From contig CAIVJR010000003.1 of NCBI GenBank assembly GCA_903906305.1, positions 1 to 56,874 on the forward strand: DNA of 56,874 bases, in the 5' to 3' direction. The translations under genes and the position numbers were made by a program. The DNA comes from an uncultured bacterium (GTDB lineage Bacteria; Patescibacteriota; Dojkabacteria; SC72). Numbering within the stretch: position 1 is the first letter of the stretch; each line of letters begins with the position of its first letter. Shown piece by piece: positions 1 through 52,406 of this stretch. The notes beneath the pieces are model-generated. The model was not told where the DNA came from. It did no database searches and saw only the letters and a program-made list of their open reading frames with translations.

Positions 1-25
1 ATATATTAAGTTTATCTTCTGTCCT

Positions 26-787
26 ATGGATAAATACAAAAATCTCCGTATATTTAACATAGTAATGGGATTCTTCCACTTTGTGCAAGGAATACTCATG
101 GTAGTACTCAGTAACGATTTCACATTACCAATCAATACCAGCTATCTTAAATTTGATGTAGCAACCCTTACACTACAACCATCTCTAAACAATATATATG
201 ATCTTAAGGTCGGATATGCAATAGCTGCATTCCTCTTCCTTTCATCATTAGCACACTTCATTATTTCAATGCCTAGAATCTATGAATGGTATGTAGCTAA
301 CCTAAAGAAGGGTATTAACTATGCTAGATGGATAGAATATGCATTTAGTTCATCCATTATGATTGTTGTGATATCAATGTTAGTAGGTGTATATGACTTT
401 AGTACTCTCTTGTTGATCTTCTTCCTCAATGCAATGATGATCCTCTTTGGAATGGTTATGGAAATACACAATCAAACTACAACAAAGACAAACTGGATAT
501 CATTCATATTTGGATGTATAGCAGGTATAGTTCCATGGGTAGTAGTAGCATTGTATCTATTTGGTTCTGGGGATGCAGATAACCATGCTCCAACCTTTGT
601 ATATTGGATCTTCTTTAGTATCTTCCTCTTCTTTAATACATTTGCAGGTAATATGATCCTACAATATGGAAAGATTGGAAAATGGAAGGACTATACATTT
701 GGAGAAAAGGTATATGTCATATTGAGCTTAGTAGCGAAATCATTACTTGCATGGCAGGTATTTGCAGGAACATTAAGACCTGTATAG
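26..787 (+). CDS. heliorhodopsin (7-TM retinal-binding photoreceptor)
   Basis: 253 aa with 7 hydrophobic helices. Full-length by-eye match to heliorhodopsin 48C12 motifs: GFFH18F, LSNDFTLP, SLAH77FI, RWIE104YAFSSS (counterion Glu), FGCIAGIVPW, FLFFNTF, S234-LVA-K238-SLLAWQ (Schiff-base Lys, codon aaa 737-739). Confidence 0.85.
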   Translation: MDKYKNLRIFNIVMGFFHFVQGILMVVLSNDFTLPINTSYLKFDVATLTLQPSLNNIYDLKVGYAIAAFLFLSSLAHFIISMPRIYEWYVANLKKGINYARWIEYAFSSSIMIVVISMLVGVYDFSTLLLIFFLNAMMILFGMVMEIHNQTTTKTNWISFIFGCIAGIVPWVVVALYLFGSGDADNHAPTFVYWIFFSIFLFFNTFAGNMILQYGKIGKWKDYTFGEKVYVILSLVAKSLLAWQVFAGTLRPV

Positions 788-798
788 AATAGAGAAAT

Positions 799-2070
799 AT
801 GTCAAAAAATAAAAGAATACTAGATTTAATACCTAAACAGTTCTCACGAAATACATTTGTATATTTTTTGATACCACTCTTTTTAATACTTCTTGGAGAC
901 GGAATAGTGGCATACATATTTCCATTGGTATTAGGAAATCATGTAAGCTCAAATCTTATCATCGGACTTATTATGTCTGCTTCATCAGTAACTAGTATTG
1001 CCTGCGACTTTCTTATTCCTCTTGTATTTCCAAAATATGGTTGGAAATTTCAGTTAATAACTGGAATCATCCTAGCCTTAACCTTTCCCCTAATCACAGC
1101 ACTTGGAGATACATTCTCAATTGTGTGGCTATTTTTAATCGCCTCATTAATGTGGGGTATTTATTATGAATTTATTATGTTTGCTCAACAAAGTTTTGTT
1201 GTGGAAGAAGAAGATCAAAAACATTTCTCTCATGATTGGAGTATTGTTGAAATCTTAACCAATATAGTAGAAGTATCAGCACCGATAATTGGAGCTTTCA
1301 TTCTCATAAGAGGGATAGTTGCATATACCTCTGTTACTTTAGTAATTGAGATTTTAGCATTGATATTTGCAATCCTACTTGTTCTCGTAAAACGAGATGT
1401 AAAAATGCAAAAACCAAAGAGCCAGATCAAGGAATATATTAGTTTTTTCAAAGAGTTAAAGTCTTGGAAAATACTTTCAAAAAAAGTATATATTGTTTTA
1501 ATAATGGCCGTAATAGTGGAAATGGTCTCCGCAGGTTTTCTAACCTTCGCAGGATTGTATGGAGAACAGTTAATTGGCAATCCTGATTGGAACTGGGCAC
1601 TCATAACAATTGCGACAATTCCATATATGTTTGGATCTATCATTATATATAGATTAAATATGAAAAAAGGGAAAAAGAGGCTTGCTCAACTCTCAATCCT
1701 TACTTCAGGAATAATACTTTCTTTATTATTCTTCTTTGGTGGAAAGCTAATTCCAATATTAGTTTTAATTTTCATTTCTAATCTCATAATGTCATTATGT
1801 TGGCCTTTAGATGATGCAATATTTAGTGATTTACAAAAACGATTAGGGAAACATGGTTTGCATCTCATTGGATTATCTCAGGCTAGTTATTCAATCGCAT
1901 ATCTAGTCGCACCAGCATTTATGGGATTTTTAGCAGATAGGGTAGGGTATAATAATTCGTTTGCGATAATTGGAGTAATAGCAGCAGTAATTGGCTTGAT
2001 TCTCTTAATTATAACTCCTCGCAAGTTACGTATGCCTCACAAAGAATTAGACAATATAGTTACTTCTTAA
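799..2070 (+). CDS. MFS-type transporter (substrate unknown)
   Basis: 423 aa, about 12 hydrophobic helices in a 6+6 layout with a basic central loop (KRDVKMQKPKSQIKEY). Starts 11 nt after the heliorhodopsin stop. Confidence 0.6.
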   Translation: MSKNKRILDLIPKQFSRNTFVYFLIPLFLILLGDGIVAYIFPLVLGNHVSSNLIIGLIMSASSVTSIACDFLIPLVFPKYGWKFQLITGIILALTFPLITALGDTFSIVWLFLIASLMWGIYYEFIMFAQQSFVVEEEDQKHFSHDWSIVEILTNIVEVSAPIIGAFILIRGIVAYTSVTLVIEILALIFAILLVLVKRDVKMQKPKSQIKEYISFFKELKSWKILSKKVYIVLIMAVIVEMVSAGFLTFAGLYGEQLIGNPDWNWALITIATIPYMFGSIIIYRLNMKKGKKRLAQLSILTSGIILSLLFFFGGKLIPILVLIFISNLIMSLCWPLDDAIFSDLQKRLGKHGLHLIGLSQASYSIAYLVAPAFMGFLADRVGYNNSFAIIGVIAAVIGLILLIITPRKLRMPHKELDNIVTS

Positions 2071-3556
2071 GGATTTGAAATTGTCCACCATATATTTCTA
2101 GACTTGGAGTATATCCTAAATCTATATATTTTTGTGCATCCTTTATTGAGACTATCAATACGTCCCCAATCTTTAACTCTGTAGCCTTAACACCATTAAC
2201 ATTTTCATTTAGTAATGCCCAACCAGGATAGTCACCATGGTTATCATAGTAATAGTAAACATTGGAGTGAGACATATAGAATTGAGAATCAATCATATCT
2301 GTCGGAGATACAAACACATAGCGTGTAACATTGTTTAAAGCATCAAGCTCTTGAGCCATAACTCTGTAATCAAGTCTCGCTTGCATAGGTTTAAGCATAC
2401 ATATTAGAGCAATATATATACCAATTGGAATTAATACAAACCATTTTTTTAACAATAACGACAATACCATCCAGAATGAAATCAAAAGAATTATCCCACC
2501 TGCAATGGTATATCTTTCAACAAAACAGTTGAAATTTAACACACTTAAGAGATAGAAACCTATAAAGGTTATTATCCCCAACACAAAGAAAAAAATAATC
2601 TTTCTTTTTTCTTCCAAATCAATTCGCTTAGATATTAAAACCCAGACATATCCAATTAGATGGATAAAAAACATAATTGCACCAAAAAGTAATGTAGGGA
2701 TATGTATGATTAATTCTCTCACAGGAGGAACACCCTCCATATACCTAACTACACCCAATGAATATGAATAGTATGCTCTAACAATGTCATAGAACTTCAT
2801 ATCCGGTACCCACCACATACCAGAAATTCCAAGACTATTTACTATTGATTTAAATGGAATGAATATTACAGCTAATGTAACAGCAAGTACTATTCCTAAG
2901 AAAACATACAGCCACTTCTTGTTTATACCCTTCTCTCCAAATACAAATTTGTAAATCAAGCTTGCGCAAACAATAGCAAAGATATAGATAATCTGGAGAT
3001 AGTGAGTACCACAAAGTAACAATGAAAGAAGAATTGTCATAACAATATATGTGATTCGTTCTTTTCCTTCTGAACTATTTAGAAGTTTAAACACTGAATA
3101 TGCTAATCCCAAAGCTAGGAATGCTAAGAAGGAATATGCCCTTGCCTCTACAGAATATGAGACAAAGAATGGGGAAATTGCAATTACTAAGGCAAAGATT
3201 AATCCAGTGATTGGATATTTTTCTTTTTTAAACAGATCTTTACCAACAAAATATGCTAGTCCAATACCTAGCAATCCAAAGAAAAGCGAAAATGATCTTA
3301 ATGAAGTTTGAGTAATCCCAAAGATGAGAGACCAACACCTAACTAATACATAGAATAGTGGGGGATGTACCTTATCTGCAGCTATCACTGCAAACATATC
3401 TTTCCAAGACATTTTAATAACATCACCTGTAAAGGCCTCATCATACCAGAAGCTCGTTCTATTGATTTCCAACAATCTTAATACCAAACCTACGATCAAT
3501 ATGATCGCGAGGATAAACAGAGGATTTTTCAATATTTTAAGAATTTTTTGCCACAT
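2060..3556 (-). CDS. GT-C fold membrane glycosyltransferase (ArnT/PMT-like, GT39/GT83 type)
   Basis: 498 aa polytopic membrane protein. First-loop motif FWYDEAF and HPPLFY are typical of PMT_2/ArnT-like enzymes. 1-nt gap to the upstream GT2 gene. Confidence 0.65.
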   Translation of the reverse strand: MWQKILKILKNPLFILAIILIVGLVLRLLEINRTSFWYDEAFTGDVIKMSWKDMFAVIAADKVHPPLFYVLVRCWSLIFGITQTSLRSFSLFFGLLGIGLAYFVGKDLFKKEKYPITGLIFALVIAISPFFVSYSVEARAYSFLAFLALGLAYSVFKLLNSSEGKERITYIVMTILLSLLLCGTHYLQIIYIFAIVCASLIYKFVFGEKGINKKWLYVFLGIVLAVTLAVIFIPFKSIVNSLGISGMWWVPDMKFYDIVRAYYSYSLGVVRYMEGVPPVRELIIHIPTLLFGAIMFFIHLIGYVWVLISKRIDLEEKRKIIFFFVLGIITFIGFYLLSVLNFNCFVERYTIAGGIILLISFWMVLSLLLKKWFVLIPIGIYIALICMLKPMQARLDYRVMAQELDALNNVTRYVFVSPTDMIDSQFYMSHSNVYYYYDNHGDYPGWALLNENVNGVKATELKIGDVLIVSIKDAQKYIDLGYTPSLEIYGGQFQILKK

Positions 3557-4298: not shown

Positions 4299-5633
4299 TC
4301 ATATGGACCTTGCAAACATAATTCCTGTTACAGCAGCTCCCGTTATGCTTCCTGATACACCCGCTGCATCGCCAGCTACATACAAGCCTTTGATACACGT
4401 TTGCAATCCGTTATCTGTAACTATCTTTGAAGATCTAAACTTAACCTCAGGTGCATAAAGAAGGGTAGAACCTCCATTAACACCCGGCATTACCTTATCC
4501 AATATCTCTAATCCTTCTTCAATATTCTTGACTATTCGATATGGCAAAGCCATAGCTATATCTCCTGGTGTAACATCTGTTAGAGAAGGTGTTACAAATG
4601 ATTTAGAAAGTCTACTCCATGAACTCCTTCGACCACTATGCAAATCCTCAAGTGATTGCAACAAAGGTTTCCCTCCTCCAAGCGTTGAGGCTACTTCCGC
4701 AATTGATTTAGCATATGCTATGGAATTCTCAACAGGTTCAGTTAAACTTACTTCAGAAACAAATGCAAAGTTAGAATTTTTGGACTTATGATCTGATTTT
4801 GAATGACCATTTACACATATGTAACCATCATAGTTTTCGGTAGCCACTTCACCATTTGGACAGCTACAGAAGGTTCTAATAATGTCGTGGTATGTTTTGG
4901 TTCTTACCTTGTAGACTGTCTCATAAAGGATATCCGCTTGACGTTTCATTATTGGTGCTAAAAATTCAACTCTTACTCCAACCTCTACCTTGTCATACAT
5001 ATATTTAATATCATATTTGTTAGCAAGTTTTTGTAACCAGCTAGCTCGAACTCTGCCAGGAGCAAGAAGAACGATAGGGGCTTTGATTTCTTTTTTGTCT
5101 TTTGTAATTACTCCACTTATCTTTTTATCCTTAACTAAGATATCTATTACTTCTGTGTTATCTAATATCTCCACACCTTTTTTAAGAAGGTCTTTTTCCA
5201 TCTTAGCTATAACCGTAGTTAATTTGTCTGTACCTACATGCCTTGCTTTTCTTACAATTAATTCAACATCATTCTTGGTAGCTTCTTCAATGAGTTTGTC
5301 ATATTCTTCATTTTGTTTTGGGTAATATTCTGCATCTACTCCAAAATCTGTAAATATTTCATCTACATAGTCTAAGATTTTTTGATATTCGGGTTGGGAT
5401 ATGAGGTGGAAGGCTTTCTCATGTGAGAGGTATGCTGTCAGGTGTAACTTTCCATCTGAGAATGTTCCTGCTCCTCCTATACCTGACATTACTTCATTGG
5501 GTTTTCTATTCTCAATTCTATTACCCATATCTATGAGGGCAATTTTCATATCTTTGTGAGATTTGAGGAGTTCGTAACATGCGAATAGGCCAGCAGGGCC
5601 AGCACCAACTACTATTACATCGTATTTAGACAT
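4299..5633 (-). CDS. FAD-dependent oxidoreductase (COG2509-like)
   Basis: 444 aa. N-terminal Rossmann motif VIVVGAGPAGL and a GGAGTFSDGKL motif typical of this uncharacterised FAD dehydrogenase family. Confidence 0.7.
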   Translation of the reverse strand: MSKYDVIVVGAGPAGLFACYELLKSHKDMKIALIDMGNRIENRKPNEVMSGIGGAGTFSDGKLHLTAYLSHEKAFHLISQPEYQKILDYVDEIFTDFGVDAEYYPKQNEEYDKLIEEATKNDVELIVRKARHVGTDKLTTVIAKMEKDLLKKGVEILDNTEVIDILVKDKKISGVITKDKKEIKAPIVLLAPGRVRASWLQKLANKYDIKYMYDKVEVGVRVEFLAPIMKRQADILYETVYKVRTKTYHDIIRTFCSCPNGEVATENYDGYICVNGHSKSDHKSKNSNFAFVSEVSLTEPVENSIAYAKSIAEVASTLGGGKPLLQSLEDLHSGRRSSWSRLSKSFVTPSLTDVTPGDIAMALPYRIVKNIEEGLEILDKVMPGVNGGSTLLYAPEVKFRSSKIVTDNGLQTCIKGLYVAGDAAGVSGSITGAAVTGIMFARSI

Positions 5634-5779: not shown

Positions 5780-6409
5780 ATGCTCCAACTCCAAAAATAT
5801 ACTAAGAATTTTAACAAGGTAGTAGTACTACTAACCATTTCCGATGTATTTGCATGGGGACCTTACTTTGTCATATCCACACTTGCAGGAATATATCTAG
5901 CTGGAAAGCTCGGGAGCAATGCAATTGAATTTATAGGTGTAGGGACTGCCATATACTACTTTACAAGAGCCCTAACACAGATACCAATAGGGTATATAAC
6001 AGATAAGATAAAGAAGGATAAAGATGATATATATTTCCTAATAGGTGGAATCATATTAATGGGAATACCATATATACTGTATCCACTCATATCTCAACCA
6101 TGGCATTACTATATTCTCCAACTAATATTTGGATTAGGAGCTTCATTAAACCTTTCTACATGGAGAAAACTCTTTGCTATGAATATAGACTATGGAAGAG
6201 AAGGAAAACAATATGGATTCTATGAGACCATTATTAGCCTCTCTACCGTTATACTTAGTGCGATTATCGGTCTTGTCGCAAATCTAGGTGACATATACTT
6301 TGATTGGGTAATGATTTGTTCTGGAATATTGATGATGGCAGGTAGTATATGGGTTGTATTAATATTTACTGCTAAGAAGAGAAAAACAAACCATATTCTG
6401 AAAACATAA
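5780..6409 (+). CDS. half-size (6-TM) MFS-like membrane protein
   Basis: 209 aa with about 6 helices. Loop motif GYITDKIKKDKD resembles the MFS TM2-3 loop. Only half the length of a canonical MFS protein. Confidence 0.45.
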   Translation: MLQLQKYTKNFNKVVVLLTISDVFAWGPYFVISTLAGIYLAGKLGSNAIEFIGVGTAIYYFTRALTQIPIGYITDKIKKDKDDIYFLIGGIILMGIPYILYPLISQPWHYYILQLIFGLGASLNLSTWRKLFAMNIDYGREGKQYGFYETIISLSTVILSAIIGLVANLGDIYFDWVMICSGILMMAGSIWVVLIFTAKKRKTNHILKT

Positions 6410-6428: not shown

Positions 6429-6545
6429 ATGAATGCAACAGAGATAAATCAAAGATTACAAGAAATAAATATATTACTAACCATTATTTACAATAAGCTC
6501 CTTGATATTAAGGCACAAAGATCAATTTCAAATATATCTTCCTAA
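6429..6545 (+). CDS. 38-aa micro-protein (amphipathic helix), hypothetical
   Basis: Not in the ORF track (below the size cutoff). MNATEINQRLQEINILLTIIYNKLLDIKAQRSISNISS. Preceded by extended -10 TGATATATT (6414-6422) exactly 6 nt before the ATG, the same geometry as many genes here. Confidence 0.4.
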   Translation: MNATEINQRLQEINILLTIIYNKLLDIKAQRSISNISS

Positions 6546-6549
6546 AACT

Positions 6550-6807
6550 ATGATACCTGACACAACAACAGAAACTAATAATATTCTTGATTTAGAAATA
6601 GCTCCAGATGTTAATACATCAACAAATATCCTTCCGGAGCAGATAAACATGCAACTTATTGAAGATGCCCAAACCAAGGGAAGGGAGATAAAAAATCTAG
6701 CACAAGAACTTTCCCAAGTAAATGACCAATTTCTAACAGGAATAGGAAAGCTCCTTGATGAAGCTGATAAATATAGTGCTGAAATAGATAGATACAATAA
6801 ACAATAA
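6550..6807 (+). CDS. hypothetical acidic coiled-coil protein (85 aa from ATG 6550)
   Basis: The track ORF 6502..6807 starts at TTG. The first ATG is at 6550, 4 nt after the micro-ORF stop. No recognisable domain. Confidence 0.4.
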   Translation: MIPDTTTETNNILDLEIAPDVNTSTNILPEQINMQLIEDAQTKGREIKNLAQELSQVNDQFLTGIGKLLDEADKYSAEIDRYNKQ

Positions 6808-15561: not shown

Positions 15562-15939
15562 CTACACCTGCCATAACCCATGAACATTGCAATATGCTCT
15601 AACTATCATATTGCTAGCATCTCCATCTATCATAAATACAGTCTCTGCAACTTCATTAGGTTTTAATTCCTTTTTGTAAATATTCTCACCAACAATACAC
15701 TCAATCCACTGAATAAAATGCTCCTCCAACATAGGATGAGGAACACTCCCAACCTTAACACTAACCTCATTACCATTTACAGTAACTACAGGAAGATGCT
15801 TCTCATTACCCTCCTCAGACTTCTTAACAGCTTCTAAAACCATAGGGTGACCACAACATACCAAAGTACCACCCCCAACATGCAATACCTCAACAACATT
15901 TCCACATACAGAACATCTATATACCTGTTTCTTTTCCAT
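15562..15939 (-). CDS. dfx: desulfoferrodoxin (2Fe superoxide reductase)
   Basis: 125 aa. N-terminal desulforedoxin centre CSVCGN..CCG, and C-terminal SOR centre with HPM.EEHFIQWIE and CNVHGLW. Confidence 0.85.
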   Translation of the reverse strand: MEKKQVYRCSVCGNVVEVLHVGGGTLVCCGHPMVLEAVKKSEEGNEKHLPVVTVNGNEVSVKVGSVPHPMLEEHFIQWIECIVGENIYKKELKPNEVAETVFMIDGDASNMIVRAYCNVHGLWQV

Positions 15940-19878: not shown

Positions 19879-20385
19879 ATGAAAACAACTGCTCTCTTGG
19901 TTTCGCTTTCGTTAGTATGTCTTTGTCTTTTTTCAGCAAAAGTAGATGCTGCTGACAGTGCTACTGTAAATGCTACAGTGACAGCACAGAATATCTCAGT
20001 TACTGTATCAAGTGGAACCATTGCCTACGGAATTCTTCCTGTTAACACAAGCAAAAGCACAATTGCAGCTGATTTAAATGCATTACAGACAGCTACAAAT
20101 ACCGGTAATGTTGCAGAAGATTTAAATATTAAAGGAGCAAACAGTACAGCATGGACATTATCTGCAACACCTGGAGCAGAGCAATATACTCATAAATTCT
20201 GTACAACAACATGTACAACTCCTCCTACTAATTTCACAGCTTTAACAACAAATTACCAAACACTAGGTACAGATGTTGCAACAAGCGGAACTAAGACATT
20301 TGATTTACAAATCACAACACCAACATCAACAGCAGTATTCACAGCACAGAATGTAGATGTTATAGTACAAGCAGTTGCACACTAA
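19879..20385 (+). CDS. secreted Thr/Ala/Asn-rich small protein (putative surface-fibre subunit)
   Basis: 168 aa. Signal peptide ending KVDA|AD and no C-terminal anchor. Five N-x-S/T sequons. Motif TAQN-x-x-V-x-V occurs at both the mature N-terminus and the C-terminus. Confidence 0.5.
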   Translation: MKTTALLVSLSLVCLCLFSAKVDAADSATVNATVTAQNISVTVSSGTIAYGILPVNTSKSTIAADLNALQTATNTGNVAEDLNIKGANSTAWTLSATPGAEQYTHKFCTTTCTTPPTNFTALTTNYQTLGTDVATSGTKTFDLQITTPTSTAVFTAQNVDVIVQAVAH

Positions 20386-20407
20386 TTATTTTATATCTGA
20401 AAACTGA

Positions 20408-21016
20408 ATGAGAAAGTTATCTGTTATCCTGCTCTCTTTGGTAAGTGTTTGCCTTTTATCAACATTTGCATATGCAAAGATTGGGGTAGGAGTAGGAACA
20501 GGTAAAATTGTTGTTAATGATATTCTCAAACCAGGACAAATATATATACTTCCCTCATTAACAGTTTTAAATACTGGAGATGAAAAGTCAACCTACAAGG
20601 TATCTATATCGTATCATGAGAATCAACCCGAGTTAATGCCTTCACAAGATCTTTTTCAATTTTCCCCAGAGACATTTGAACTAGCACCTGGTGATGCTAA
20701 GGTAGTTAATATAAAACTTAATCTTCCCTTAAAGATAGAACCTGGAAAATATTTTGCATATCTTGAAGCTTCTCCAACTGCAACCGCAGAAACCTCCGCA
20801 GGTACATCCATAGGAGTAGCTGCAGCTGCTAAACTATACTTTGAAATAGCTCCTGCAAACATATTTCAAGCAATATATTACAAACTTGTTTCCCTTTGGA
20901 TCCTTTACTCTCCTTGGTCACTTAGAGTAACAATATTCATTGGATTAATAATCGCAGTTTTACTCTTGAGAAAGTTTTTAAATATAAATATAAGCCTAAG
21001 GAAGAAAGATGAATGA
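20408..21016 (+). CDS. signal-peptide protein with Ig-like beta-sandwich region and C-terminal TM anchor
   Basis: 202 aa. Signal peptide, then alternating beta-strand pattern (TYKVSISY, AKVVNIKLNL, GKYFAYLEA), then C-terminal helix VTIFIGLIIAVLLL followed by basic residues. Confidence 0.5.
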   Translation: MRKLSVILLSLVSVCLLSTFAYAKIGVGVGTGKIVVNDILKPGQIYILPSLTVLNTGDEKSTYKVSISYHENQPELMPSQDLFQFSPETFELAPGDAKVVNIKLNLPLKIEPGKYFAYLEASPTATAETSAGTSIGVAAAAKLYFEIAPANIFQAIYYKLVSLWILYSPWSLRVTIFIGLIIAVLLLRKFLNINISLRKKDE

Positions 21017-21546
21017 AAATCTTAGGAAAATTGATTGCAACAATTAGTTTAATATCTATACTCCCACTGGCAGTATTGGCATATTCAGATTCTTCTCGGA
21101 TAGGGGCATCTGTAAAGATATCGGTCTGTGGAGATGACATTATAGAAGGAAAAGAAGAATGCGAAAAGGGATTAGGTATACAATATAACTGTAAAGATTT
21201 TGGATACATCTCTAAACCAATTAGTTGCGATATTAGTTGCGCATATGATCTTTTGAGTTGCCAAACAGTAAAAGCAATTGATAATAATAACAATAATGAA
21301 GATATAGAAGAGTCATCCCTTCCAACTTTAATGATCGACTGGGATCAAGATAGTGATGGGATATTAACAATAAAAGAATTTGCTTCATTCATAACAAATT
21401 GGGTAAGTAACTGGAAATCATTCATTGTACTACCTAAAGAAAACATCGAAAAAGACACAGTTGCAAAGGAGTGTGATATTAATTCAGACAAAACATGTAA
21501 TATAACTGATTTCTCAATAATATTGTATTATTTAAATAATGACTAA
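21013..21546 (+). CDS. secreted Cys-rich-repeat protein with dockerin-like double EF-hand
   Basis: 177 aa. Signal peptide, CGDDIIEGKEECE Cys-rich repeat, poly-Asn linker, and two Ca-loop motifs DQDSDGILTIKE and DINSDKTCNITD. ATGA overlap with the upstream gene. Confidence 0.6.
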   Translation: MKILGKLIATISLISILPLAVLAYSDSSRIGASVKISVCGDDIIEGKEECEKGLGIQYNCKDFGYISKPISCDISCAYDLLSCQTVKAIDNNNNNEDIEESSLPTLMIDWDQDSDGILTIKEFASFITNWVSNWKSFIVLPKENIEKDTVAKECDINSDKTCNITDFSIILYYLNND

Positions 21547-22579
21547 TCGAGAAAGAATAAAACCAATACAAACTATTCTCCTACTGATTCCTACAGTTGC
21601 CCTGTCTTGGATCTTTGTACATGTATTTGCAATCTTAGGTATCTTTTTAGCTGTCGCATACCCAATATGGTGGCTAATATTCCCTAAGGGTACTCCATGC
21701 ATTTTCTGTAGGACAACTCCATTAGGTGAAGAATGTCCCGCTTGTCATGAAGTAGTTACAATTGATAGAAGGTCACCAGCAAATTTCATCTCGGTAACAA
21801 AAAACTTTTTATTAATAATGTTAATTTCAGGTATTTCAGTATTAGCTGTATATGGAGAAACTTTAGCACTTGGTAAGCTTGGAATACAATTAGAAGAAGC
21901 CAAAGTGGAATTCGTCATACAGGACAAACAACAGTACAAAATTGGAGAAATATTTCCAATTGATTTGAATATAAATAGTAATGGGGTAAATATAAATGCA
22001 GTACAAACAGATATCGGTTTTAACCCAGACAAAATTGAGATAGTAAAACTTTCATTAGAAGAGTCCTTTGCACAAATATTTATTCAAAAAGAGATTAATA
22101 ACGATAGTGGATATTTGAGAGTTACAGGAGGATTACCTTCACCAGGATACAACGGTGATAATGGCCATTTTGCTACAGTATACTTTCGATCCAAAGAAGC
22201 CGGCATATTTGATATACAATTTCTTCCATCCTCCCTTGTGTTAGAAAATGACGGGAATGGGACTAATGTTCTTAAGTCATATCCAAAAACTTCATATTTA
22301 ATCAAACCTGAATATGTCACAGAAACAGAAAAGGAACTTCAAAGCACTATCTTAAGTCTTAATGGAAATGGAGTACTTGGGGTTGATTCAACCAATAAAC
22401 AGATGTTGTTCTTTGATAGTACTAATAACACGGAAAATATTATGGGTGTAGAAGATATTGATGATACAGATACAACAGAAAAAGCAGAAGAAACGAAATC
22501 ATTTTGGAAGATATTATTAATGATTGATCAATGGATTGTTGGAATACTAGCAAAATTATTAGAGGTATTTAAATTCTAA
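21539..22579 (+). CDS. membrane-anchored cohesin-domain protein with cytoplasmic Cys4 loop
   Basis: 346 aa. Two N-terminal TM helices, CIFC..CPAC, a third TM helix, then a cohesin-like domain (KIGEIFPIDLNINSNGVNINAVQTDIGFNPDKIEIV..GHFATVYFRSKEAGIFDIQF), an acidic linker and a C-terminal hydrophobic helix. Confidence 0.6.
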   Translation: MTNRERIKPIQTILLLIPTVALSWIFVHVFAILGIFLAVAYPIWWLIFPKGTPCIFCRTTPLGEECPACHEVVTIDRRSPANFISVTKNFLLIMLISGISVLAVYGETLALGKLGIQLEEAKVEFVIQDKQQYKIGEIFPIDLNINSNGVNINAVQTDIGFNPDKIEIVKLSLEESFAQIFIQKEINNDSGYLRVTGGLPSPGYNGDNGHFATVYFRSKEAGIFDIQFLPSSLVLENDGNGTNVLKSYPKTSYLIKPEYVTETEKELQSTILSLNGNGVLGVDSTNKQMLFFDSTNNTENIMGVEDIDDTDTTEKAEETKSFWKILLMIDQWIVGILAKLLEVFKF

Positions 22580-22631: not shown

Positions 22632-22940
22632 TTACCTTCTGTCGTAACCACCTCTGTTATCTCTATCACCAAATGATCTGTTCTCTCTAGGAGTTTCCTC
22701 TCTAGCTTCAGATACATTCAATGCTCTTGCGTCAAGCTCTTTTCCGTTTAACTCAGCGATTGCTCTCTGAGCTTCTTCTTCGGTTGACATCTTAACAAAA
22801 CCAAATCCTTTAGATCGGTTTTTGATTCTGTCTTTTATAACGACTGCTTCAAGAACAGTACCAACAGAACTAAAGAAATCTTTAAGCATAGCGTCATCGA
22901 CGTTCCAGCTCAAGTTTCCTACAAATAACTTGTTTCCCAT
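22632..22940 (-). CDS. RRM-type RNA-binding protein with Arg/Gly-rich tail
   Basis: 102 aa with RNP-2 LFVGNL and RNP-1 KGFGFVKM. Confidence 0.85.
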   Translation of the reverse strand: MGNKLFVGNLSWNVDDAMLKDFFSSVGTVLEAVVIKDRIKNRSKGFGFVKMSTEEEAQRAIAELNGKELDARALNVSEAREETPRENRSFGDRDNRGGYDRR

Positions 22941-25271: not shown

Positions 25272-25988
25272 ATGAAAAATATTAAAAAGACACTATTATT
25301 TTCACTTATCATATTCATTGGATTGATATCAGCTCGCCAAGTTATGGCAAGTACGACATATACCCAAACTGAAGTAGCACAACATAATACAAGTAGTAAT
25401 TGTTGGGCGATATATGAAAGTGAGGTATACGATATAACTACATATTTGAATATACATAATCAGAAATATTCAGATATTACCTCATGGTGTGGAACTGATA
25501 TGACAACTGATTTTGACAGTGTTCGAAAACATCAGGGAGAAGCTACTACATTATTAGCATCTTTTAAGGTCGGAACAATCTCTACTGCTACACCTTCTAC
25601 TACTACACAAACTTCAACAGTAACGGATACAAGTTCACAAACTGAAACTACGGCAACATCAAATACAACAGTACTAAAAAATCCATATAATTTGTTTCTA
25701 CCTTTAATTCTTGGAATGGTATTGTATTGGGGAAGCCTACTAATATTCAGCAAATACCTCAAACAATTTAATGCCTTCTGGAATACAATTCTTCTACTTA
25801 CATTCTTGATACCAACTTTTGGTTTTGGAATCTTCATGATGTTCCAATATAGATTTCCTTCGCTCATGGATACAAGCTTCAGATTTATGTACTGGCATGT
25901 AGAATTCTCCGTATTTATGGGTGTGCTTGGAATCTCTCACTTCATACGTAGAGCAAAAATATATTTAATGCAAATCAAACAAAGATGA
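25272..25988 (+). CDS. membrane protein with extracytoplasmic cytochrome-b5-like domain and His-containing 4-TM C-domain
   Basis: 238 aa. Signal/anchor, then EVAQHNTSSNCWAIYESEVYDITTYLNIH..TDF..RKH (cyt-b5 fold pattern, HPGG replaced by IHNQ), a Thr-rich linker, and TM helices with WHVEF/SHF histidines. Confidence 0.5.
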   Translation: MKNIKKTLLFSLIIFIGLISARQVMASTTYTQTEVAQHNTSSNCWAIYESEVYDITTYLNIHNQKYSDITSWCGTDMTTDFDSVRKHQGEATTLLASFKVGTISTATPSTTTQTSTVTDTSSQTETTATSNTTVLKNPYNLFLPLILGMVLYWGSLLIFSKYLKQFNAFWNTILLLTFLIPTFGFGIFMMFQYRFPSLMDTSFRFMYWHVEFSVFMGVLGISHFIRRAKIYLMQIKQR

Positions 25989-26767: not shown

Positions 26768-27478
26768 ATGGTTTCGAAAACATCAGAGAATTCCGCTCTG
26801 TTAGTTGAAAAGAACACTGATATTCTAAAAGTTTTAAAACCTTGTTTCCTTTACCACGAGATACATTTGACTCATCTAAAGGATATTTCAGATATTCCTA
26901 TTTCACTTAGTAGTAGATATTCTCTTTTAATATTAGATCTCAAGCTTTTAAATCCAACAAACATCGAATATTTTAAAAAAGTTAGAGAGCAGAATCTATT
27001 CTTACCAATTATAGCTACAGGACCAAATGATATATCAGATGCTATTAATTCATTTACTCTTGGGATTAATCTCTATCATTCGAAGCCAATCTGTTGTGAA
27101 TTGTTAAAAGCTCAAATTGGTCAATTAACATCTTTCTTTAGTAGAAAAGTAATATTTGAGATTGGAGATATAATGATAGATTTGGCTTCCAAATCATTTT
27201 TTGTTAAGAATAAGAAAATTCCTCTTACATACCAAGAGTTCCACCTTCTTGCACTATTAATGCGGGCTAGGGGACATATAGTTAGTAGAGATTGTATTAG
27301 TAAGTACTTTGCAGGAAAGCATGAAGAAATTAGTTATGCCGCAGTTGATACCTTAGTTAGCAGAATTAGATCTAAGCTTAAATCACATCTCAAAGAACCA
27401 CTAATTCAAACTGTTCATAAGGTAGGGTATAGAATAAATACAATATATTTCAAAGACCTCCACATTGAAAAAAGCTAA
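26768..27478 (+). CDS. OmpR-family winged-helix regulator with atypical receiver domain
   Basis: 236 aa. C-terminal Trans_reg_C pattern (YQEFHLLALLM..VDTLVSRIRSKL..VHKVGYRI). The receiver keeps the Asp (LLILDLKL), Thr and Lys (HSKP), but the acidic pair is E-K (LLVEKN) instead of D-D. Confidence 0.7.
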   Translation: MVSKTSENSALLVEKNTDILKVLKPCFLYHEIHLTHLKDISDIPISLSSRYSLLILDLKLLNPTNIEYFKKVREQNLFLPIIATGPNDISDAINSFTLGINLYHSKPICCELLKAQIGQLTSFFSRKVIFEIGDIMIDLASKSFFVKNKKIPLTYQEFHLLALLMRARGHIVSRDCISKYFAGKHEEISYAAVDTLVSRIRSKLKSHLKEPLIQTVHKVGYRINTIYFKDLHIEKS

Positions 27479-49580: not shown

Positions 49581-50789
49581 ATGCCAGCATACGAACCATT
49601 AGCATCAAAATACAGGCCTAAAACATTAGAAACCCTCATAGGTCAAGAACACCTTGTAGGAGACAATGGACCCATTAGGAAGTTCATAGAATCAGGCAAC
49701 ATACCCTCAATGATTTTCTGGGGGCCACCAGGCACAGGAAAAACCACATTAGCATATATCATCTCCCTTAACCTCTACTATGATTTCCACAAACTCCAAG
49801 CAGTATCAGCAGGAAAAGAACAATTAAGAAAGATCATAAAGGTAGCATTAAATAACCAACAATATGGTAAAAAAACAATCCTGTTTTTAGATGAAATACA
49901 TAGATGGAATAAAGCTCAACAAGATGCATTACTACCATATGTAGAGAAGGGGATAATCATACTCATAGGAGCTACAACAGAGAACCCATCATTTACCGTA
50001 AACAGTGCATTACTTTCTAGAACTAAAGTATTTGTATTCAAACAACCAACGGAAGAAGATATATCAAAGCTCATAAAGAGGATTGCAAAACTAGAATATC
50101 CAGATATTGGTATAGGGAAGAAGGAATTGGAAATAATGGGGAATCTCTCCAATGGAGATATACGTTCAGCATTAAACATATTGGAAATGGCTACCACATT
50201 AGCAACATCTGCACAAAAGCAAGATGAGAAAGCTAAGGTAACTACAGAACTTCTAATGTCTGCCATACAGAAACCCGTCTACTATGACAAGACTGGAGAG
50301 GAGCATTACAACATCATATCTGCAATACATAAGTCCATGAGATCATCTAATCCTGATGCTGCATGTTACTGGGTAGGTAGAATGTTAAGTGGGGGAGAAG
50401 ATCCATTATATATTGCTCGAAGACTTCTAAGGTTCTCTAGTGAGGATGTAGGAAACGCAGATCCTAATGCATTGGTACTCGCAAATAGCGTATATGAAGC
50501 ATGCCAAAAATTGGGTATGCCAGAGTGTGAGACCTTACTTATGCAGTTAGCTATATACCTTTCTAAGGCTCCTAAGGACAATACCGCTTACAAGGTTGAA
50601 TTAGAGGTAAAGAAAGATATTGAGATATATGGGAATCTTCCTGTGCCTTTAAATATACGTAATGCTGAAACAAAATTAATGAAGGATATTGGATATGGTA
50701 AGGGGTATGAATATGATCATGATTTAGCTAACAAGAAATCAGATCAACAATGTTTACCAGATAGGTTGAAGAACAAGAAATATCTCTAA
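49581..50789 (+). CDS. rarA: replication-associated recombination protein RarA/MgsA (AAA+ ATPase)
   Basis: LASKYRPKTL, Walker A GPPGTGKTT, Walker B LFLDEIHR. Start re-called to ATG 49581, exactly 6 nt after extended -10 TGGTATAAT (49566-49574). The track ORF opens at 49536. Confidence 0.85.
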   Translation: MPAYEPLASKYRPKTLETLIGQEHLVGDNGPIRKFIESGNIPSMIFWGPPGTGKTTLAYIISLNLYYDFHKLQAVSAGKEQLRKIIKVALNNQQYGKKTILFLDEIHRWNKAQQDALLPYVEKGIIILIGATTENPSFTVNSALLSRTKVFVFKQPTEEDISKLIKRIAKLEYPDIGIGKKELEIMGNLSNGDIRSALNILEMATTLATSAQKQDEKAKVTTELLMSAIQKPVYYDKTGEEHYNIISAIHKSMRSSNPDAACYWVGRMLSGGEDPLYIARRLLRFSSEDVGNADPNALVLANSVYEACQKLGMPECETLLMQLAIYLSKAPKDNTAYKVELEVKKDIEIYGNLPVPLNIRNAETKLMKDIGYGKGYEYDHDLANKKSDQQCLPDRLKNKKYL

Positions 50790-51307
50790 ATAGATCGATC
50801 AACTCTGTACTTAATCCTTGGTCTAATTTTCTCATCTCTTGTAAGTCTTCGCATAAAGATATTGTTTTCTATTTCAAATAATCTTCCTATAGCTGAATCG
50901 AGTCTTTCACTTCGCCCTTTTTCTTCACCACGTTTTACAATCAAAAGAGGCATTGATGCTCGTTTAAAGTCTTTTGAATATGGTATAAAAAGAGTGATTT
51001 CACCGAAATCTCCAAAAGCACATTTAGTCTGTAGTATTACTGGATATATAGGATCATGAGAATTTTTAACATCTGCAGAAATAGTAATTGGCAACTGCAC
51101 ATCTTCAACTCCAATTTCTAATAAAACATCGTGTAGCGCTTCAATTTCAAAATCATATATCTGTCCATCAAATATACCTTCTAATGTTTCTGATGGGTCA
51201 TCATACAAAACAATATCCTGATATTGAGATCTAGATAATGTATCCGCGAGTTGTGCGAATTCTTTAGTTAATTCTGTTGTGTTATTTTCTTTTGGATCTC
51301 TGTTCAT
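50786..51307 (-). CDS. hypothetical acidic protein (third gene of orphan trio)
   Basis: 173-aa ORF. Acidic N-half and basic C-tail. No domain recognised. Confidence 0.45.
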   Translation of the reverse strand: MNRDPKENNTTELTKEFAQLADTLSRSQYQDIVLYDDPSETLEGIFDGQIYDFEIEALHDVLLEIGVEDVQLPITISADVKNSHDPIYPVILQTKCAFGDFGEITLFIPYSKDFKRASMPLLIVKRGEEKGRSERLDSAIGRLFEIENNIFMRRLTRDEKIRPRIKYRVDRSI

Positions 51308-51340
51308 GGCCTATAATTATATCTCAATATCATTATATTC

Positions 51341-51805
51341 TCAATCCTCATACCAGAAATAATCATCAGCCACTGCTTTACCTAAAAGAAATATATCCCT
51401 ATGTGGATACTTCTCCCATGTACTAACCACCTTCGCCTCCTTATATGCCTCCCTATGCTTCACAATACCTTCTCTTGAATTTGTATCTATCTCAAAAGTA
51501 ATGGCACAGCTATCGCATCCAATATCCATATGTAATAGTCCTGTTTCCGTATGTGAAATATCAATTGCTATTTTAGGGAAGAAACTCAATTGTGAATTAA
51601 AAATATCAAAAAAATGATTATATATCTCTAAAGAATATTCAGATGGCATGATTTCAGCATAAAATACAGAGGTCTTATTCAAGAATTCCTCCTCATTTGC
51701 GAAATGAATGTTTGTTAAACCTGATAAGATAAGGGTACTATCCAAATATTCCGCTTCTAAATTGGGATCAAAATTCAGTTGTTCTGCGATTGATACATTA
51801 TTCAT
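51341..51805 (-). CDS. hypothetical acidic protein (second gene of orphan trio)
   Basis: 154-aa ORF whose start overlaps the upstream stop (ATGAATAA). No domain recognised. Confidence 0.45.
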   Translation of the reverse strand: MNNVSIAEQLNFDPNLEAEYLDSTLILSGLTNIHFANEEEFLNKTSVFYAEIMPSEYSLEIYNHFFDIFNSQLSFFPKIAIDISHTETGLLHMDIGCDSCAITFEIDTNSREGIVKHREAYKEAKVVSTWEKYPHRDIFLLGKAVADDYFWYED

Positions 51806-52406
51806 GTTTGAGCTCTATGCCTTCCAATTCACCATTCGTTGCCTTTTTCATAACTATTTCTTGAGCTAATACAAATAGATTTTTTAATTCTTCTGTTAGC
51901 TCTAGATCTGCACAACCTTTGTATTTCTCATCCGAAGGCCATCTAAAAAATACTCTGCATTTAGGATTTTCTTTTTTAAGATGTAAAACATGTAAACTTA
52001 CCCAACAATCTTTTGAAAAATATACTACCAAATTCAATCGCTCTCCACATTCTTCATTTTCTAAAAAAGCATCCATATCTAACAACGAATTTTGAAGGTG
52101 AGGATGTACACCTTTGGGAAGTTTCCTAAAACTATAATCAATATTTAAAGCAATACCATCTGGTACACTATGAATCTCATCCGTTACGAATAGTTCGTCA
52201 CATTTTGATAAGGCTTCAATAAGGTTAGCAGTATCTTCTCCAGAAAGCATCGCATTCTCTTTAATCCCCCATGGACGGGATTCTTCTTCCCTTACATCTC
52301 TAACAATCTTAATATATTGTGTAGAGGATAACTCAACCAAGTCATACAATTGAGGGAGATTGAGAAATATTTCTTTATCTATATCTGTTAGTTCTGCGTT
52401 TACCAT
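51798..52406 (-). CDS. hypothetical acidic protein (first gene of orphan trio)
   Basis: 202-aa ORF, divergent from tyrS. No domain recognised. Confidence 0.45.
   Translation of the reverse strand: MVNAELTDIDKEIFLNLPQLYDLVELSSTQYIKIVRDVREEESRPWGIKENAMLSGEDTANLIEALSKCDELFVTDEIHSVPDGIALNIDYSFRKLPKGVHPHLQNSLLDMDAFLENEECGERLNLVVYFSKDCWVSLHVLHLKKENPKCRVFFRWPSDEKYKGCADLELTEELKNLFVLAQEIVMKKATNGELEGIELKHE

Follow-up and report, generated by a model that had tools for sequence, protein, structure and literature searches.

Heliorhodopsins (HeRs) are an already catalogued family in bacteria of the candidate phyla radiation (CPR). Chiriac et al. 2022 (Microbiome 10:84; PMC9166423) screened 1,326 CPR genomes and retrieved 98 HeRs, including 80 from Saccharimonadia, 7 from Dojkabacteria and 3 from ABY1, found SLVAK, SLIAK and SFVAK to be their commonest motifs, and discussed a sensory, oxidative-stress-related role for these proteins. 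Patescibacteria were also included in the HeR neighborhood analyses of Bulzu et al. 2021 and Chazan et al. (bioRxiv 10.1101/2021.02.16.431466). In terms of function, HeRs are reported to bind, and thereby to regulate, glutamine synthetase, a photolyase and an ABC exporter (the latter in PMC11109279). Here, we examine the HeR encoded at positions 26–787 (+) of a 56,874-nucleotide stretch of DNA from an uncultured bacterium (GenBank assembly GCA_903906305.1, contig CAIVJR010000003.1; the whole 57-kb stretch is hereafter called the window), and compare it with two relatives of known structure, namely TaHeR from the Thermoplasmatales archaeon SG8-52-1 (PDB 6is6, 7u55 and 7clj) and the prototypic actinobacterial 48C12 (PDB 6su3, 6uh3 and 9ljj). 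We find it to be a genuine, intact heliorhodopsin and consider it quite probable, by analogy with these relatives, that it is a functional, non-pumping light sensor or regulator that obtains exogenous retinal via a lateral fenestration.

Family identity, retinal pocket and fold

The HeR gene starts with an ATG that lies 25 nt from the 5′ edge of the window, and codes for a protein of 253 aa with seven transmembrane (TM) helices and a predicted cytoplasmic N-terminus. It matches the Pfam Heliorhodopsin profile PF18761 from end to end (profile positions 1–242 of 242; E = 1.9e-101; 338.9 bits against a cutoff of 26.7), and the same is true of the NCBIfam equivalog NF038020 “heliorhodopsin HeR” (1–244 of 244; 349.7 bits, with the cutoff at 100). 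The type-1 rhodopsin profile PF01036 (Bac_rhodopsin) gave no match at E<=0.01, and the motif in TM7 is the SxxxK form, not the DxxxK of type-1 rhodopsins. A comparison against all PDB sequences, with residues mapped from the HMMER alignment, recovered TaHeR (6is6) as the closest sequence (E = 5e-76; 51% identity over 250 positions) and 48C12 (6su3) as the second (E = 5.8e-63; 46% identity), both aligned over almost their full length, and homologues detected at E<1e-20 number more than 7,600. These matches are far above chance. The first-pass annotation had matched this seven-TM protein to 48C12 along its whole length by eye; the full-length profile matches and the alignment to 48C12, in which K238 and E104 fall on K241 and E107, now place that assignment on a firm footing.

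The same alignment sets H18, H77, E104, S234 and K238 against H23, H80, E107, S237 and K241 of 48C12, respectively, with the local contexts GFFHFVQ around H18, SLAHFII around H77, RWIEYAF around E104 and LVAKSLL around K238. The Schiff-base lysine K238, which closes the S234-L-V-A-K238 motif of TM7, is specified by an aaa codon at 737–739 (+), and the single Schiff-base counterion E104, in the RWIEY segment of TM3, by a gaa codon at 335–337 (+). Thus, the retinal-pocket signature that had been proposed for this protein is complete, with each of its residues at the position originally assigned to it. When 26 functional positions of 48C12 were checked, 25 proved to be identical in the present HeR, among them N16, S76, Y92, N101, R104, W105, Y108, N138, M141 and E149, as well as P172, W173, Y226 and E230 (48C12 numbering). 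The sole mismatch is Q213 of 48C12, which is replaced by M210; TaHeR likewise has a methionine at this position. TaHeR further shares I199, F203, N204, A207, Q213, E227 and the lysine of the SLVAK motif with the present protein. The differences from these two reference proteins are few: 48C12 comes from another host phylum, and TaHeR from an archaeal rather than a CPR host, with an EF loop shorter by four residues than that of the present HeR (SGDADNHAP).

The identical positions extend to the lateral fenestration, the region of which is encoded at 503–646 (+): F160, C164 and G167 in TM5 and F203, N204 and A207 in TM6 are the same in all six cases as their 48C12 counterparts F162, C166, G169, F206, N207 and A210. 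In a 2025 preprint (bioRxiv 10.1101/2025.11.27.691015), this fenestration is proposed to be both the retinal entry port and a carotenoid-binding site, its motif combining G169 and N207 with aromatic side chains at 162 and 206 and small ones at 166 and 210 (48C12 numbering). Across 47 homologues from CPR bacteria (67–95% identity), there is no variation at H18, H77, E104, S234, K238, Q213 and E227 or at the pocket residues. The ratio of nonsynonymous to synonymous substitution rates (dN/dS) against close relatives is 0.042–0.053, at dS values of 0.34–1.1, and the HeR gene is thus under strong purifying selection.

An AlphaFold2 model computed from the alignment of the 47 homologues (mean pLDDT 90.6; pTM 0.86) displays the seven helices together with the AB-loop beta-sheet typical of heliorhodopsins, the strands of which lie at residues 33–61. 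Foldseek superimposes this model on TaHeR (6is6) with a TM-score of 0.93 and a root-mean-square deviation of 1.5 Å, and on 48C12 (6su3) with a TM-score of 0.92; against type-1 rhodopsins the TM-score is only ~0.6, at 8–14% sequence identity. The loops on the N-terminal side of the model contain 10 lysine and arginine residues versus 3 on the other side. By the positive-inside rule, this favors the N-terminal side being inside and hence predicts the inverted, N-terminus-in topology for the present protein.

Proposed mechanism and source of retinal

By extrapolation from 48C12 and TaHeR, all-trans retinal would be attached covalently to K238 through a protonated Schiff base, E104 being its only counterion, and would be isomerized by light. 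The Schiff-base proton would then pass to acceptors inside the protein, H18, H77, Q213 and E227 among them, with no release to the bulk, and a long-lived intermediate would act through the cytoplasmic face on one or more cytoplasmic or membrane partner proteins. Since the proton would stay internal and the long-lived state would act on a partner, the protein is best pictured as a putative light sensor or regulator and not as an ion pump. Neither TaHeR nor 48C12 is known to transport ions. The mode of action would presumably be that of the AbHeR–glutamine synthetase, TfHeR–photolyase and OcHeR–OmrDE pairs, wherein the light-activated HeR modulates a bound protein; a transporter gene lies directly downstream of the HeR gene in the window. 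However, the partner genes of those pairs do not adjoin the present HeR, and its transporter neighbor, a member of the MFS, varies among near-identical strains. With no conserved partner linked to it, this locus makes the question of HeR output in the CPR no more tractable. As a short sequence with 51% identity to the crystallized TaHeR, the present protein is a reasonable candidate for the biochemical study of a CPR HeR.

The retinal itself would come from the environment or a host and enter through the fenestration formed by F160, C164, G167, F203, N204 and A207; uptake from outside is proposed on the grounds that the cell is most likely unable to synthesize retinal. Pfam scans of the 61 open reading frames (ORFs) of the window detected no member of the BCD/Blh, RPE65, SQS_PSY (phytoene synthase) or CrtI-type (phytoene desaturase) families. 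A lycopene cyclase match obtained with the ORF at 4299–5633 (−) was rejected: it is limited to the N-terminal Rossmann motif (residues 4–39), and the protein is an FAD-dependent one of the PF21688 (FAD-depend_C) family. This FAD-dependent protein, encoded 3.5 kb from HeR, is 94–98% conserved in the WS6 relatives discussed below. With this Rossmann-only match being the only one of its kind, the earlier observation that the window holds no retinal or carotenoid gene is upheld. The accompanying suggestion that the chromophore is scavenged is reasonable, and rests on 57 kb of the genome.

Scavenging is also the standard inference for such hosts, and several published observations bear on it. Rhodopsin-bearing Saccharibacteria that lack blh have been described (Jaffe et al. 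2022, PMC9296517). Their type-1 rhodopsins, SacR, likewise belong to CPR hosts and presumably obtain retinal from hosts or neighbors; unlike the present HeR, they carry a DTS motif and pump protons outward, whereas the HeR would have the opposite topology and, by inference, no pumping activity. In the work of Chazan et al. (bioRxiv 10.1101/2021.02.16.431466), blh is rare among HeR neighbors and in HeR-only genomes, and the co-occurrence of blh with HeR is seen mostly where a type-1 rhodopsin is also present. As cited in PMC9296517, Shihoya et al. 2019 found that TaHeR takes up retinal fast through an opening in the apoprotein and that there are HeR hosts without a retinal pathway. In the present case, the pocket and fenestration are strictly conserved and strongly selected in genomes apparently unable to make retinal. 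Such conservation supports the published view that these minimal cells, although they get their chromophore from neighbors or hosts, continue to devote resources to sensing light.

Host lineage and relatives

Close relatives of the present HeR include a protein from GCA_964610125.1 (97% identity), the genome of our locus L006. The closest named ones are “hypothetical protein UR96_C0010G0030” of the candidate division WS6 bacterium GW2011_GWC1_36_11 in GenBank (95%), a protein from the GWC2_36_7 metagenome-assembled genome (MAG; 95%) and that of the WS6 bacterium GW2011_WS6_36_26 (94%). We take the 95%-identical GenBank protein to stem from the 2015-era Rifle aquifer MAGs. The homologue of Candidatus Dojkabacteria bacterium HGW-Dojkabacteria-1 is 76% identical, and the HeRs of other Dojkabacteria and further relatives show 67–78% identity, several of them being already named “heliorhodopsin HeR [Candidatus Dojkabacteria bacterium]” by NCBI. 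The close Dojkabacteria/WS6 HeRs are nearly all 253 aa long and have the same SLVAK motif, and the gene order is common to the WS6 relatives; hence, they are in effect the same protein, with differences only at the strain level, such as the variable MFS gene. When a single genome of each GTDB species was scanned, 189 relatives were found, of which the top ~60 (57–98% identity) are mostly titled as Patescibacteria or as a CPR lineage, comprising WS6, Kerfeld-, Nomura-, Berkel-, Parcu- and Saccharibacteria, and the rest have other or generic titles; the HeRs of Thermoplasmatota come next, at ~55% identity.

Because the closest named HeR relatives are WS6/Dojkabacteria MAGs with a shared gene order, the host belongs to candidate division WS6 (Ca. 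Dojkabacteria), a lineage of the CPR. The GC content of the window is uniform (31–38%). It encodes the wall and division proteins MraZ, RsmH, FtsI, MraY, FtsW, MurG and Ddl, and the information-processing and housekeeping proteins peptide deformylase, BipA, MnmA, IscS/NifU, TyrRS, RelA/SpoT and pyruvate kinase, along with few transporters. This sparse and bacterial gene content, together with the host assignment, agrees with the reduced, CPR-like genome inferred at first sight. This kind of HeR, its host group and its motif had all been described before, and so had the idea of scavenging, as is evident from the survey of Chiriac et al. 2022, the 95%-identical GenBank protein, the HeR names given by NCBI and the published retinal uptake. 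Consequently, the novelty that the first-pass annotation had implied for a HeR in a CPR genome does not hold: Dojkabacteria HeRs with SLVAK (PMC9166423) and the uptake of retinal were both in print. The present gene is one more strain-level copy of a family catalogued in the CPR, and its value is confirmatory.

The 61 ORFs include peptidoglycan genes (FtsW, MurG, Ddl, MraY and FtsI), and the Pfam scans of the 57-kb window found no outer-membrane biogenesis families among them. The CPR envelope is presumed to be of the monoderm type, and heliorhodopsins are reported to be absent from diderms. Five of the HeR-bearing loci that we collected are titled “uncultured Gammaproteobacteria” (L013, L014, L015, L039 and L059) and one “Spirochaetia” (L083), which are diderm labels that, if correct, would contradict this reported absence. 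Their HeRs are 54–67% identical to the WS6 protein, and some of these loci share neighbor families with Kerfeldbacteria or Patescibacteria loci; the labels on all six are probably unreliable. A separate observation concerns the sample names: names that point to groundwater, aquifers or geysers are common among the CPR MAGs with a HeR, the closest named relatives of the present one not excepted (GW2011, NC_groundwater, SO_*_GW1 and CG08_land), with groundwater-type titles seen for the loci L007, L017, L023, L025, L027, L028, L031, L034 and L047 and the proteins P0013, P0022 and P0049.

Gene neighborhood and rival explanations

A look-up of the window’s exact HeR sequence matched no record, and the upstream context of HeR was taken from L006, the 97%-identical relative, wherein 64 nt separate HeR from the end of a polysaccharide deacetylase gene on its upstream side. 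The gap between the two contains a weak promoter-like site, TTCACT-18-TATATT, at 5953–5982, which is a consensus match only, and the promoter scan found fewer such sites in this upstream region than in shuffled sequence. In the window, the −10-like hexamer TATATT of this site is located at 2–7 (+), with the −35 element falling beyond the window. The ten partners that recur in HeR operons according to Cho et al. 2024 (PMC11109279) are the glutamine and NAD+ synthetases, a photolyase, MerR, TerC, ABC transporter, short-chain dehydrogenase/reductase, alpha/beta hydrolase, DUF2177 and DUF2238. None of these adjoins the present HeR, which is flanked by an MFS_1 gene downstream and, going by the 97% relative, by the polysaccharide deacetylase gene upstream.

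A survey of three genes on either side of HeR in 78 non-redundant loci yielded 409 neighbor proteins that fall into 323 clusters. The most recurrent of these are ABC exporters (11), OmpR-type response regulators (5), MsrA (4) and ABC-2 permeases (4), none of which is conserved across the loci or adjoins HeR here. We rejected even the best cluster, the ABC exporter, as a conserved partner: it is present at 11 of the 78 loci, as a raw count, and in variable positions. Nonetheless, the recurrent neighbors echo the published links of HeRs to transporters, two-component signaling and oxidative stress. The one linkage that persists within Dojkabacteria joins HeR to the IscS–NifU–MnmA cluster, 0.6–6 kb downstream, and is most simply interpreted as inherited gene order. 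The Dojkabacteria relative with 76% identity carries a DUF1295 gene two genes upstream of HeR (L004 7057–7839 (−) and L005 224–1006 (−)); DUF1295 is a recurrent HeR neighbor in the analysis of Chazan et al. (bioRxiv 10.1101/2021.02.16.431466), along with DUF2177 and DegV, and was not seen next to HeR in the window’s own lineage.

The gene immediately downstream, at 799–2070 (+), codes for an MFS_1 transporter of 423 aa (Pfam MFS_1, E = 2e-27) and begins 11 nt after the HeR stop codon on the same strand. There is no terminator-like site between the two genes at this junction as scanned in L006, and the MFS gene is probably co-transcribed with HeR in the present strain. This raises the possibility of a two-gene, light-regulated transport unit in which the light-activated HeR binds and modulates the MFS protein, the cargo being retinal, a carotenoid or a drug. 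The modulation of the membrane ABC exporter OmrDE by a HeR (PMC11109279) would be a precedent, and ABC exporters are, as noted above, the commonest HeR neighbors. Comparison of the window’s neighboring genes with 85 loci by tblastn shows how far the arrangement extends: it is kept in L001/L006 (HeR 97% identical), with the MFS gene having a dN/dS of 0.046 versus the 97% relative, and in L008 (HeR 93%), but the MFS gene is cleanly missing from L007 (HeR 95%) and L009 (HeR 98%), where the HeR stop abuts a convergent PMT_2 gene, and no MFS homologue adjoins HeR in the 70 more distant loci. Nor is an MFS protein among the ten recurrent partners of Cho et al. Hence, we rejected the HeR–MFS operon as a conserved functional pair; the MFS gene is an accessory gene, dispensable in sister strains, and a joint light-regulated unit is unlikely. 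The strain-variable MFS gene is the single peculiarity specific to this locus. In a narrower version, it would have been inserted 11 nt behind HeR in the WS6 strain lineage and maintained there by purifying selection, such that the HeR might gate the transporter by light. We regard this as decidedly improbable; if true, it would represent the first HeR–MFS pair, and the light-gated transporter could conceivably import a retinoid or carotenoid for a cell unable to make the chromophore.

The non-pumping light sensor or regulator that we favor has to be weighed against several points that count against it. Retinal binding, the photocycle and the absence of transport are extrapolated from homologues that are 46–51% identical, and our literature search found no experimental characterization of any CPR HeR, the present one included. 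A retinal pathway may be encoded elsewhere in the genome, of which 57 kb were covered, and an unknown retinal pathway has been suggested by Chazan et al. (bioRxiv 10.1101/2021.02.16.431466). No partner can be named from the scattered neighbor clusters, and the groundwater-named MAGs of close relatives sit oddly with a light-dependent role. These names, and the fact that no retinal gene lies in the window, would speak for a light-independent function, with the protein acting as a structural element or chromophore-free regulator in a dark-living host unable to make retinal. Yet the 47 homologues do not vary at K238, E104, S234, the two histidines or the residues of the pocket and fenestration, and dN/dS is ~0.05, as would be expected from selection on chromophore binding; we accordingly give this explanation hardly any credence. 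A light-driven or light-gated proton transporter comparable to the giant-virus V2HeR3 is also very improbable. Some HeRs do transport protons (PMC9448325), a fermentative, energy-poor CPR cell would profit from the proton-motive force, and type-1 pumps exist in Saccharibacteria (PMC9296517); however, the hallmark of viral proton transport, E191 with its paired W195 in V2HeR3, corresponds to I199 and F203 in TaHeR (PMC9448325), and the present HeR has the same Ile199 and Phe203 as the non-transporting TaHeR. Moreover, TaHeR and 48C12, the closest characterized relatives of the present HeR, have a hydrophobic extracellular half (PMC9448325). With the hallmark absent, we rejected the proton-transporter candidate. 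Finally, the main role of the protein might be to harvest light, a scavenged xanthophyll at the fenestration serving as its second antenna (the “two-antenna” proposal), possibly coupled to sensing or to an unknown energy-conserving output. The full carotenoid-site motif is indeed present (the aromatic pair F160/F203, the small residues C164/A207, G167 and N204), and the presumed monoderm host could reach exogenous carotenoids. However, the accessible part of the preprint that proposes this arrangement (bioRxiv 10.1101/2025.11.27.691015) builds on docking and sequence statistics, reports no carotenoid-bound HeR structure or energy-transfer measurement, and finds the motif in 91% of HeRs, so that it is nothing specific to the present one; such a second antenna is quite unlikely here.

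Beyond HeR and its MFS neighbor, the PMT_2-type glycosyltransferase gene at 2060–3556 (−) is only 62–73% identical between strains, and its flanks (HeR, GT2, the FAD-dependent protein, a 209-aa MFS protein and IscS) are mostly 87–98% identical, with GT2 at 66% in L008. It is a local hypervariable gene that probably serves surface glycosylation. The 209-aa protein, a half-size member of MFS_1 encoded at 5780–6409 (+), recurs in this form in the 97% relative, where it is 95% identical, and would thus be a genuine half-transporter or else a truncation that arose long ago; it is followed by a short ORF without a Pfam match at 6502–6807 (+). Runs of consecutive ORFs with no Pfam match at E<=0.001 are found at 19879–22579 (+; four ORFs) and 50786–52406 (−; three ORFs). 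ARAGORN called a tRNA-Leu(aag) at 27170–27258 (+), inside the ORF of an OmpR-type regulator (26768–27478); the call has no Rfam support at the gathering threshold and is a probable false positive. The receiver domain of this regulator scores 21.6 bits, below the cutoff of 30.2, so that the protein may be a response regulator of an atypical or degenerate kind. The window additionally codes for two proteins of kinds less usual in bacteria, namely one with a cytochrome b5-like heme-binding domain (25272–25988 (+)) and an RRM_1 RNA-binding protein (22632–22940 (−)), and for a desulfoferrodoxin-type superoxide reductase (15562–15939 (−)), which fits the oxidative-stress context proposed for CPR HeRs.

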